A DNA stretch of 64,000 bases, taken from the sequence record NC_054910.1. The stretch is one strand, 5' to 3'. Positions 9,210 to 62,115 of this stretch are shown piece after piece. A program made the position numbers and the translations under genes. The DNA comes from Escherichia phage EcNP1. The notes below the pieces were generated by a model. That model ran no database searches, was not told where the DNA came from, and was given only the letters and a program-made list of their open reading frames with translations. Numbering within the stretch: the first letter of the stretch is position 1; every line of letters begins with the position of its first letter.

Positions 9210-10427
<1,218 letters not shown>

Positions 10428-10431
<4 letters not shown>

Positions 10432-10658
10432 TTATTTTTCTCAACCAATGATTGAATATAATCATGCAGGTCTTTAGATGCTTTACCCCACTTATTTTGA
10501 TATTCATTTTTAAGATTAGCCCGAGATTGAGCTAATAAAACGTCATTAGTTGGAGGTAAAGATTCTAATCGTTGAATCTGACGTCCATAAATCATTGCAG
10601 CCATCTCAGATTCATAAATCAATCCTTTGAGATGTTCAAATTGATGCCATGAAATCAT
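10428..10658 (-). CDS. hypothetical protein (pseT.2 position)
   Basis: 76-aa ORF, coupled. Confidence 0.55.
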
Positions 10659-10954: not shown

Positions 10955-11304
10955 TTAGAAAGGTCCTGGATGTCTTCTGCGAACTTGTTGAAGGAGTTGT
11001 TGATTTGTTTTTCAACCAATCCTGGCTTATGAGCCACCACATCCGCCTTCTTTGCATCTTTGCGCAGTTTTTCATTTTCACGCTCAATAGCAGCAATTGC
11101 CTCACGATTTTTATTATTCATCGCATCAATATAATTATACTGAATTCGCAAATTATCTAATGCTAAAGCGTTTTCATTGGCCGTTTTTGTAATTTCTACA
11201 ACAGACGTTTCTAATCTTTCAATTTTACTTTTTAAAATTAAAGAAGTTCCGCCCAATGCAATTACAATTAATAACAAGCCTGCTGTCGTATTACTTAATT
11301 GCAT
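10951..11304 (-). CDS. membrane-anchored coiled-coil protein
   Basis: 117 aa; hydrophobic N-terminal segment LLLIVIALGGTSLIL then charged helical region. Confidence 0.55.
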   Translation of the reverse strand: MQLSNTTAGLLLIVIALGGTSLILKSKIERLETSVVEITKTANENALALDNLRIQYNYIDAMNNKNREAIAAIERENEKLRKDAKKADVVAHKPGLVEKQINNSFNKFAEDIQDLSK

Positions 11305-11801
11305 AAAGTTTTAATAACCTCTACAATATCGTCTTGAGAAAGACCGTTAATTAAAATATGATGTTCAGCCGGAGATTTAGAAATTTTAAAGCATGCCTCA
11401 ACATCTTCTGCCATATCTGACGCGTTACGATTTGGATTACTAATTCCAAGACGATGTTTTCCCGTCAAAGGATTAACGATGATGTAGCATTTACAGTTGT
11501 TAATATGAACATTAGGTTGAGTCTGATTAATAAACACTTCACAATCATATTTAGCAAGCTGATTTTCTAAAAAGACTTTCATCTCCTCAACTGCATCAGG
11601 AAGCATATCACGGGCTTGCTCAAGACGACGATTTCGATATTCTTTAATGGTCGTTTTCCGCTTGACTTGCTTAGCTAAATCTTTCTTAAGATCGGTGATA
11701 TATCCAACTCGACGATTTCCTTTAAATACAGAAATCCCATCTGTAGTATCACCGTATGCTTCAACGACCATTTCAGTAGTAATAAGCTGTAAATCCATCA
11801 T
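11295..11801 (-). CDS. alc: Alc, host transcription unfoldase/terminator on dC-DNA
   Basis: 168 aa, MMDLQLITTEMVVEAYGDTTDGISVFKGNRRVGYITDL matches T4 Alc (167 aa; second ATG may be the true start). Confidence 0.85.
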   Translation of the reverse strand: MMDLQLITTEMVVEAYGDTTDGISVFKGNRRVGYITDLKKDLAKQVKRKTTIKEYRNRRLEQARDMLPDAVEEMKVFLENQLAKYDCEVFINQTQPNVHINNCKCYIIVNPLTGKHRLGISNPNRNASDMAEDVEACFKISKSPAEHHILINGLSQDDIVEVIKTLCN

Positions 11802-11830
11802 AAAGTCCTCATGTTGTGTCAGTAAGTCTA

Positions 11831-11859
11831 CTGTAACACAACATGAGGGACTTGTAAAC
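11831..11859 (-). promoter_or_regulatory. early-promoter-like element upstream of alc, inside a hairpin
   Basis: Minus strand GTTTAC, 18-nt spacer, TACAGT; the -10 sits in the loop of a 13-bp stem that contains the alc RBS. Confidence 0.4.
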
Positions 11860-11862
11860 AGC

Positions 11863-13450
<1,588 letters not shown>

Positions 13451-13477
13451 AATAAAATGGGCCTTGCGGCCCACTCC

Positions 13478-14647
13478 TTAAAAATATTTTTTAAAACTCA
13501 TCATAACTTTATCATCAACATCATTATCAATCTGTGCAACAAGGTAAGATGACAGTTCTACTTCTTGCGGCGCGGATTGAACATTATCAGAATTAAGATA
13601 TTCACGAATCCAAGGATACGGATGTTTAACCGGAGCATCGGTAATTGGGCATGGAAGACCGCACTGTTTCATACGAGATACAGTTAAGTAATCAATAAAG
13701 CTCCACATGCTATTTGTATTTAATCCAGGAACATCGCCATCTTTAAATAAATGAACTGCCCAGTCTTTTTCTTGGCGGTTAACTTCCATGAAAATATCAA
13801 CTGCTTCTTGTTCACACTCTTGAGCAATTTTAACCCATTCATCACCATCTGTGCCAAGTTGAAGTTGACGAATAATATATTGGGTGCCTTTAAGGTGTAG
13901 CTGTTCATCACGTGCAATGAACTTCATAATCTTAGCATTACCTTCCATGATTTCCATGTTTTTATGGAAGTTAAAGGTGCATGCGAAAGATACATAAAAA
14001 CGAATAGCTTCCAAGGCGTTGATTACATGCAAGCAGAGGTAAAGAGATTTCATTAATGCTCGTTTAGTACATTCAACAACTTTGCCTAACTCTTCTTTAC
14101 GAAATCCTTCTGATAAAATTCCTTCATAATCTTCAACCGCATTCTGATATTCACGAGTCTTAACTAGAACATCATCATAATAGCGACCAATGGACTCGGC
14201 ACGTTTCATAATAGCTTTATCTAATACAATCTCATCAAATACCTTTGACGGATCAGTATAAAGATTTCGCATGATATGAGTATATGAACGGCTGTGAATA
14301 GTTTCACTAAAAGTCCATGTAGCAACCCATGTATCAAGACTTGGGTCTGAAATTAATGACATAAGTACAGCAGACGGTGCACGACCCTGAATGCTATCCA
14401 AAAGTGATTGATACTTCAGATTATTAGTAAAAATATCTTGCTGATACTGAGGAAGCTTGTTAAATTGTGCAGCATCCATCATCAAGTTTACTTCTTCAGG
14501 ACGCCAGAAAAATGACAACTGCTTTTCGGTTAAATCTTCAAAAACTTTATGACGTTGAATATCGTAACGCGCAATACCAAGACCTGAACCGAAGAACATA
14601 GGTTCTTTTAAAACATCAACTGGATTTGTATTAAAAACTGTGCTCAT
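13478..14647 (-). CDS. nrdB: ribonucleotide reductase small subunit, uninterrupted
   Basis: 389-aa continuous ORF with class Ia R2 features; no intron (T4 nrdB carries a group I intron). Confidence 0.93.
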   Translation of the reverse strand: MSTVFNTNPVDVLKEPMFFGSGLGIARYDIQRHKVFEDLTEKQLSFFWRPEEVNLMMDAAQFNKLPQYQQDIFTNNLKYQSLLDSIQGRAPSAVLMSLISDPSLDTWVATWTFSETIHSRSYTHIMRNLYTDPSKVFDEIVLDKAIMKRAESIGRYYDDVLVKTREYQNAVEDYEGILSEGFRKEELGKVVECTKRALMKSLYLCLHVINALEAIRFYVSFACTFNFHKNMEIMEGNAKIMKFIARDEQLHLKGTQYIIRQLQLGTDGDEWVKIAQECEQEAVDIFMEVNRQEKDWAVHLFKDGDVPGLNTNSMWSFIDYLTVSRMKQCGLPCPITDAPVKHPYPWIREYLNSDNVQSAPQEVELSSYLVAQIDNDVDDKVMMSFKKYF

Positions 14648-49146: not shown

Positions 49147-49231
49147 GTTGTTTTCTGTATCAGTAGTTGATATTGATATAGTACCATAATCAACTACTGA
49201 TGTATATAGTTTTATGAAAAAATTTTAAACT

Positions 49232-49765: not shown

Positions 49766-49794
49766 TTATACTCTGGTCCCAAGAGTTTGTAAAC
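49766..49794 (-). promoter_or_regulatory. early promoter upstream of the MotB-like gene
   Basis: Minus strand GTTTAC, 17-nt spacer, TATAAT, flanked by GGGACC/GGTCCC inverted repeat. Confidence 0.55.
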
Positions 49795-50878: not shown

Positions 50879-50902
50879 CTAACCGAGGAAGTAAACAACT
50901 TT

Positions 50903-62087: not shown

Positions 62088-62115
62088 TATACCATAGTCT
62101 TGTCAGCTTGTAAAC
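62088..62115 (-). promoter_or_regulatory. early promoter for dmd
   Basis: Minus strand GTTTACAAGCTGA..., TATAGT -10, with 9-bp inverted repeat ACAAGACTA/TAGTCTTGT. Confidence 0.5.

Follow-up and report, generated by a model that had tools for sequence, protein, structure and literature searches.

A predicted promoter-gated hairpin at the alc ribosome binding site of a T4-like phage, with its anti-Shine-Dalgarno arm inside an early-promoter spacer

Hairpins that inhibit translation by enclosing the initiation region have been described for genes e, soc, 49, I-TevI, I-TevII/III, segB and Aeh1 mobE, and in those cases a late promoter within the DNA encoding the 5′ strand of the hairpin gives rise to a translatable RNA (Uzan & Miller 2010, PMC3014915). 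A preliminary description of the DNA analysed here proposed such an arrangement for alc, with e, soc and 49 as precedents; the same review bears out these precedents, adds I-TevI, and does not list alc (PMC3014915). Nor is alc among the hairpin cases in the accessible T4 reviews, and in the open literature we found no relevant paper on T4 start-site mapping, early-promoter hairpins or the gene 63/alc junction; the older T4 literature may hold a prior description. The proposal was that transcripts reading through from upstream would occlude the alc ribosome binding site, and that RNAs begun at a promoter inside the hairpin would leave it free. All of its sequence-level predictions hold, and the comparative data agree. 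We conclude, from sequence comparison and RNA folding models, that the alc leader is probably a real, selected, promoter-gated translational switch of the gene e, soc and 49 kind, built on an early σ70 promoter.

The window (the whole 64,000-nt stretch of DNA that was analysed) belongs to a Tequatrovirus, that is, a T4-like phage; phage Nami is the best match (98.9%), and some 500 relatives fall in the range 95-99%. Its minus strand carries nrdB, denA, rnlA (gene 63), alc, pseT.3, pseT.2, pseT.1 and pseT. Alc is an inhibitor, or terminator, of transcription on cytosine-containing (host) DNA. The rnlA-alc spacer is 64 nt long on the minus strand, and the junction reads, in the sense of the mRNA, TAA-gct-GTTTAC-a-AGTCCCTCATGTTGTGT-TACAGT-agacttactg-ACACAACATGAGG-acttt-ATGATG (Table 1). 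The comparison drew on alc loci of annotated phages and of IMG/VR contigs (Alc identity 31% to 99%); the rnlA-alc synteny and a spacer of 55-75 nt are retained almost everywhere among them. Elsewhere on this strand, nrdB of the window is an uninterrupted 389-aa ORF (13478-14647), whereas T4 nrdB is split by the I-TevIII intron, and the pseT/pseT.2 interval holds two ORFs (106 aa and 76 aa; 10111-10658) where T4 has only pseT.1 (75 aa).

Table 1. Positions in the window of the alc leader elements and of other early promoters with self-complementary leaders (SD, Shine-Dalgarno)
Feature	Position	Strand	Remarks
rnlA (gene 63) stop codon TAA	11863..11865	minus	3 nt 5′ of the -35 hexamer; from T4 annotation
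-35 hexamer GTTTAC, T4 early-promoter type, -36 to -31	11854..11859	minus	promoter scan; conserved
Promoter spacer AGTCCCTCATGTTGTGT, 17 nt	11836..11852	minus	holds the whole 5′ arm; ends in TGn, TG at 11838-11837
Hairpin 5′ arm CCUCAUGUUGUGU (mRNA CCTCATGTTGTGT)	11836..11848	minus	anti-SD CCUC at 11848-11845
Hairpin loop TACAGTAGACTTACTG, 16 nt	11820..11835	minus	-10 hexamer and initial transcribed nucleotides
-10 hexamer TACAGT (T4: TATAGT)	11830..11835	minus	within the hairpin loop
Predicted +1 A	11823	minus	36 nt past the G of GTTTAC; 7 nt after the -10; 3 nt before the 3′ arm
Hairpin 3′ arm ACACAACAUGAGG (mRNA ACACAACATGAGG)	11807..11819	minus	includes the SD GAGG at 11810-11807
Tandem alc starts AUG AUG	11796..11801	minus	second is the T4-annotated start
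alc coding sequence, 167 aa from the second AUG	11295..11798	minus	T4 annotation, homologues
Early promoters with spacer complementary to the sequence after the -10	-35 at 62115, 61627, 57962, 55857, 50896, 49794, 40299, 20066, 8538, 5123, 4731	minus	
Pairing covers the SD or AUG of the next gene	50896 (motB.2 homolog), 40299 (ndd.4), 5123 (30.8), 55857 (modB), 57962 (mrh.2)	minus	
SD left free	62115 (dmd), 61627, 49794 (motB), 8538 (cd.2), 4731 (30.7)	minus	

The hairpin had been described as a perfect 13-bp stem with a 16-nt loop upstream of alc, and this is what the sequence holds, the arms at 11848-11836 and 11819-11807 being 100% complementary. The stated distance of 7 nt from GAGG to the start codon was wrong: GAGG is separated from the first AUG (11801-11799) by 5 nt and from the second (11798-11796) by 8 nt. 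In the predicted fold the stem is larger than first described, with a basal AAGUC/GACUU extension to 11853/11803 that contains one bulged C; the extended stem has ~17 bp, and a possible apical 5-bp helix within the loop (CAGUA/UACUG) would bring it close to ~22 bp. The minimum free energy of the segment from the -35 to the AUG is -28 kcal/mol, and none of 200 dinucleotide shuffles of the 101-nt context folds as well as the original (z = -7.0). Perfect 13-bp inverted repeats with loops of 3-30 nt are expected 0.115 times per shuffled window, at least one being present in 9% of shuffled windows, and two were observed. The alc hairpin by itself is thus only moderately improbable, and its significance rests on conservation. 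An Rfam scan of the hairpin returned only sub-threshold generic hairpin matches, at 20-26 bits against gathering scores of 50-135. The second perfect 13-bp repeat in the window lies on the minus strand at 49151-49207 (~20 nt at 85%), probably just 3′ of the motB homolog, judged by its offset to the motB promoter at 49794. It has a -10-like motif, TGgTACTAT, in its loop and a degenerate -35 (ATATACA), and the covariance model of alc leaders described below matches it with E ~3e-4.

A GTTTAC -35 just 5′ of the stem and a TACAGT -10 in the loop had also been proposed, and both are found, at 11859-11854 and 11835-11830. A promoter scan reports TTTACA-17-TACAGT with a TGn at the leader, and the site, GTTTACA-17-(TGt)TACAGT, has the core elements of a T4-type early promoter (Pe), namely GTTTAC, a spacer of 16-18 nt, TGn and a TAnnnT -10. 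We infer the start site from the rule that places GTTTAC at -36 to -31 (Nolan 2006), which reproduces Pe133295, the sole early promoter named in the T4 GenBank record, and which puts the alc start of T4 at ~136,300. GenBank records of two relatives carry a pattern-based 'predicted early promoter' annotation at exactly this site; the T4 GenBank and RefSeq records have no promoter or stem-loop feature there. There is no MotA box at the alc site and no middle promoter near T4 136.3 kb in the published listing (Hinton 2010), and the late promoter motif TATAAATA does not occur within 5 kb on the alc strand. Upstream, the sequence ending in ATACTAAGCT has A at -40, -41 and -44, where an A-rich UP-like element would lie (about -40 to -44), but is constrained by the last rnlA codons and stop. 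Across 29 distinct alc leaders, from many Straboviridae genera, aligned with MAFFT (alignment A2), GTTTACA is invariant (29/29), and the TG, T-12, A-11, T-7, the +1 A (at least 90% conserved as a column) and two spacer positions are invariant or nearly so; the sole -35 variant among all distinct leaders is GTGTAC, in four IME13-/VR25-like sequences. We conclude that, by this alignment, the conserved promoter columns, the two spacer positions aside, are those read by the σ70 holoenzyme.

RNA folding in both transcript contexts agrees with the expectation that the SD would be buried in read-through RNA and much freer in RNA started in the loop. Opening the region from SD to AUG (UGAGGACUUUAUGAUG) is predicted to cost 14.1-16.0 kcal/mol in read-through RNA with eight different 3′ ends (+10 to +300), compared with 4.0-7.3 kcal/mol in RNA starting at 11823 or 11826 with the same eight ends, a difference of ~9-11 kcal/mol at matched 3′ ends. 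The corresponding values for T4 are 16.9 kcal/mol for read-through RNA and 3.1 for promoter-proximal RNA. When 751 nt of read-through RNA are folded, 11 of the 13 stem pairs form with a probability of 0.87-1.0, and all of GAGG is paired in the predicted fold. We conclude that, in these models, the SD is thermodynamically far more accessible in promoter-proximal than in read-through RNA. A segment of the alc coding sequence (11530-11545) is complementary to the SD-AUG region (11796-11812, minus), and its pairing with the SD region in predicted own-promoter transcripts of at least 200 nt raises the opening cost from ~4 to ~7 kcal/mol; we judge this pairing to be secondary because it requires more than 270 nt of ribosome-free downstream RNA.

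The same element is present in T4 (AF158101, 136276-136339), with a better -10, TGtTATAGT, and with two transitions in the stem that turn an A-U and a G-C pair into G·U wobbles. More generally, all stem differences among six distinct Tequatrovirus versions of the leader are transitions that preserve pairing, and the loop is freer to vary. In most lineages beyond this genus the 17-nt spacer pairs with the alc SD region despite completely different sequences: the spacer and SD arms are CCTCATGTTGTGT/ACACAACATGAGG in the window, TCTCCATTTGGTT/AACCAAATGGAGA in Karamvirus and Moonvirus, TCCTCATCAG/CTGATGAGGA in Jiaodavirus, ACCTCTCATTTT/AAAATGAGAGGT in Proteus phage phiP4-3 and CCTCGTTTGTT/AACAAACGAGG in Klebsiella Potts1-like phages. 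Alignment A2 sets the stems of the lineages in differing registers and does not lend itself to scoring against a single structure; hence, we used an alignment-free swap test, a register-matched subset and a covariance model. In the swap test, which covered 12 lineages, the arms of a lineage paired with each other at a mean of -20.4 kcal/mol and with foreign arms at -11.2, and none of 20,000 permutations did as well (p < 5e-5). In nine register-matched leaders, 95.7% of cells pair, with double-sided changes at 4 of the 13 pairs; none of 500 shuffles reached the score, no slid register approached it, and RNAalifold found the same helix unaided. A covariance model built from these nine leaders recovers nearly all of the lineages in which the SD is paired. 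When 28 distinct sense-strand leaders were aligned to the model, 95.3% pairing was retained, with compensatory double changes at 10 of the 13 pairs; this alignment (A4) is fitted to the structure, and antisense matches and other promoters were removed from it by hand. Automatic start or SD calls for Merlin, Kanagawa and L078 were dropped or redone. We conclude from these comparisons that the hairpin pairing is under selection.

The pairing is not universal. When leaders were clustered at 80% identity, the SD was paired with sequence 5′ of the predicted start in 17 of 25 clusters (~14 strongly, three weakly). Five clusters, among them Yersinia fHe-Yen9-01/TG1-like phages, L055, Acinetobacter phages and IME13-like phages, do not occlude the SD; in four of them a stable hairpin (~-18 to -23 kcal/mol) spans the -10, and the IME13-like fold is weak. 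The remaining three clusters, Mosigvirus (RB69-like) and two others, have no such hairpin. In Mosigvirus leaders L021 and L053 the promoter of alc is intact, but its spacer is self-complementary (ACACC-AAGGA-TGGTGT) and the SD has no partner. Hence neither this promoter nor alc requires a gating hairpin in at least one successful genus. In Gaprivervirus-like contigs, Gualtarvirus and L076 the arm complementary to the SD is displaced (leaders L011, L024 and L076), to a position beside, overlapping or after the -10, still before +1. Contigs L011, L012 and L015 (VR25-like, Gaprivervirus) also have a terminator-like hairpin, AAAAAGGGG-TGTACAA-GCCCCTTCTTTCT, ~60-100 nt 5′ of alc; it overlaps the -35, with GTGTAC in its loop, and the anti-SD arm of this lineage now lies 3′ of the -10 (TGGTTCCATCA/TGATGAGGACCA). 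The SD itself also varies. The RegB target GGAG is absent from the alc SD of both the window and T4, which have GAGG, and is present in that of Karamvirus, Moonvirus, Dhakavirus, Roskildevirus and others (L017, L019, L020 and L022), so RegB inactivation of alc mRNA may differ by genus.

The alc leader is not the only early promoter with this build. The pattern GTTTACN-N16/17-TAnnnT has 20 matches in the window, all on the minus strand, and at eight of them the spacer forms a duplex of -14 kcal/mol or stronger with downstream sequence; shuffled spacers give an expectation of 0.14 such sites and swapped partners one of ~0.6, and no spacer reaches that strength against its own upstream flank. The covariance model, built from alc leaders alone, also matches the promoters at 50896, 5123 and 40299. 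In 69 kb of T4, occlusion of the SD specific to read-through RNA is predicted at alc, motB.2, modB, 30.8, ndd.4 and mrh.2, and at motB, dmd, 30.7 and cd.2 the predicted hairpins do not include the SD. The same architecture is thus found at about half of the GTTTAC-type early promoters of both the window and T4. It is conceivable that alc best illustrates a general and hitherto undescribed rule for T4-type early promoters, by which the 17-nt spacer also serves as an anti-leader or anti-SD arm, every early cistron is translationally insulated from upstream read-through, and the rule is conserved across Straboviridae with its arms continually rewritten; we advance this only tentatively and would not be surprised to see it fail. 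If the rule were true, the distinction between immediate-early and delayed-early or middle expression would be enforced in translation as well as in transcription. About half of the promoter-embedded hairpins exclude the SD, so the class may have another or an additional role. A helix that ends 2-3 nt before an SD could still hinder 30S binding through standby-site effects.

The SD-free hairpins keep a further explanation in play, as an additional or even the main role, namely that the hairpin is chiefly an mRNA-end or processing element, stabilizing the rnlA 3′ end against exonucleases or separating the cistrons through RNase III or RNase E, with the SD overlap as a by-product. A purine-rich SD makes an easy partner for a pyrimidine-rich spacer, and a helix of ~22 bp, counting the apical one, approaches RNase III substrates in length. 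Similarly built hairpins leave the SD free at the early promoters at 62115, 61627, 49794, 8538 and 4731 and in alc leaders L048, L055, L066, L027, L072 and L073, and SD-free promoter hairpins usually start 0-12 nt from the upstream stop codon. Against this reading, the arms have been completely rewritten in most alc lineages, yet the base of the stem is still ~0-6 nt 3′ of the SD core, and arms that have been relocated (L011, L024 and L076) still pair with the SD and still lie before +1. We therefore consider it unlikely that end protection or processing is the main function, and note that such a role would be compatible with translational gating.

The translational switch presupposes that polymerases pass from rnlA into alc, and a strong, GC-containing hairpin directly after a stop codon could instead be a terminator or attenuator that ends rnlA transcripts before alc. 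Gaprivervirus-like contigs (L011) do carry a genuine terminator-like hairpin (GGGG...CCCC followed by a T-run) 5′ of the alc promoter, evidence of selection against read-through at the rnlA-alc junction. The alc stem, however, is followed by ACUUUAUGAUGG, which has no U-run, a terminator scan finds nothing at the site or elsewhere between rnlA and alc, and no lineage with the conserved stem has a U-tract after it. Termination by this hairpin is accordingly a very improbable reading, and read-through from rnlA into alc is plausible on the basis of the sequence. As to where such RNA would begin, the 52-nt denA-rnlA spacer contains a MotA-box-like element, TGCTTCC-N13-TGgTACTAT (13014-13039, minus), that is identical in T4 (L004 2980-3017); an rnlA middle promoter is not in Table 1 of Hinton 2010, and middle-mode RNA running on into alc could start at this element. 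A weak GC hairpin, GGGCC-GCAA-GGCCC, followed by ATTTTATT (13461-13479, minus), separates the nrdB stop from the denA start; it resembles a tetraloop-capped terminator and overlaps the initiation region of denA. Transcripts that pass this weak hairpin are a likely source of read-through for alc.

An inverted repeat around a -10 could also act in the DNA, as the operator of a dimeric regulator or as a cruciform that modulates promoter activity. The arms are indeed symmetrical about the -10 hexamer, and the palindrome of the window is a perfect repeat whose two strands fold alike (-28.0 and -28.5 kcal/mol). The T4 hairpin, in contrast, is worth -24.4 kcal/mol in the sense RNA and -15.4 in the antisense, because its G·U pairs become A·C mismatches on the antisense strand, and at the strong promoter hairpins elsewhere in the window (nine sites) the sense RNA is the more stable by 5-9 kcal/mol. 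Taken over all alc leaders, this asymmetry is less marked, at 30 to 18. We conclude that the G·U asymmetry, in T4 and at the other promoters of the window, points to a structure in the sense-strand RNA, which argues against an operator or cruciform. Moreover, the arm sequences co-vary and are not conserved, and the 3′ arm follows the SD and keeps no fixed distance from the -10. We regard a DNA-level function as scarcely tenable. A chance palindrome without function, for which one could cite the 9% of shuffled windows that hold at least one perfect 13-bp hairpin, is effectively refuted by the comparative data, namely conservation and covariation over many genera and a build that recurs at 8 of 20 promoters where 0.14 would be expected.

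Returning to the promoter-gated switch, we propose that it would work as follows. The 17-nt spacer of the early promoter would supply an arm complementary to the alc SD region. A polymerase arriving from upstream, on nrdB, denA or rnlA transcripts in early or middle mode, would copy both arms, and the hairpin of ~17-22 bp would form once the 3′ arm emerges, before the AUG is made, burying the SD to within 2 nt of the AUG; such long RNAs would be silent for alc translation. A polymerase starting at the embedded promoter would begin in the loop, at about 11823, and its RNA, with the 3′ arm only, would have an unstructured leader of ~22 nt from which alc could be translated. We infer both that read-through exists, in whatever amount, and that it would affect translation in this way.

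T4 early promoters shut down after a few minutes (PMC3014915), and middle RNA includes extended early transcripts (PMC2988021). Given the early shut-off, promoter-dependent translation would confine Alc to an immediate-early pulse uncoupled from the expression of rnlA, whose protein accumulates late; this may be the biological reason for the arrangement. Published T4 data place Alc in the early-RNA/early-protein class, which is consistent with, and not specific to, an early promoter at alc, whereas rnlA and nrdB combine early RNA with late protein and denA combines middle RNA with late protein (supplement of PMC9697503). These timings are consistent with separate control of alc and rnlA, without proving the mechanism. 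More broadly, the recurrence suggests that T-even promoter spacers carry a second, RNA-level code, which could help to account for the mismatch in timing that has been reported between T4 mRNAs and proteins (PMC9697503). Synthetic biology could also make use of the element, as a small, transferable promoter that keeps read-through RNA from being translated. To our knowledge, the timing of Alc synthesis has so far gone unexplained. The main interest of the locus lies in the clear selection on structure and in the wider, apparently undescribed, use of early-promoter spacers.

Set against known systems, the alc leader combines features of several. Like an intrinsic (Rho-independent) terminator, it places a stable hairpin right after a stop codon; it differs in lacking a U-tract, in escaping a terminator scan and in having the SD of the next gene as its 3′ arm. 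As a T4-type early promoter it is typical: immediately 5′ of an early gene, it combines a GTTTAC at -36 to -31 with TGn and TAnnnT elements, a spacer of 17 nt and an A as the predicted first nucleotide. Accessible descriptions of such promoters, however, treat the spacer as free of information, and here it encodes an arm of an RNA hairpin. With soc, 49, I-TevI (in the td intron), I-TevII/III, segB and Aeh1 mobE it shares the principle that upstream transcripts hide the initiation region and promoter-proximal RNA exposes it. Those genes, however, are late-expressed or homing-endonuclease genes with late promoters; none is immediate-early, and none has its anti-SD arm inside a -35/-10 spacer. 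The likeness to T4 gene e is that on long transcripts the SD and AUG lie in a local helix, and that similar leaders are predicted in close relatives (PMC3014915). For e, the structure and a 100-fold effect were demonstrated by experiment, whereas the alc switch is predicted from sequence. Gene e also relies on gp55-dependent late promoters (TATAAATA) that delay its translation to the late period; alc has an early σ70 promoter and no TATAAATA. Of the features that define the e, soc, 49 and I-TevI type, alc thus has the pairing of the SD, the internal promoter (at the sequence level) and the conservation, and lacks the late promoter. We conclude that, as judged from its sequence, the alc element works like the e, soc and 49 hairpins but differs from them in its early σ70-type promoter, and with an early in place of a late promoter the temporal logic is predicted to be reversed, alc being translatable early and silent later.
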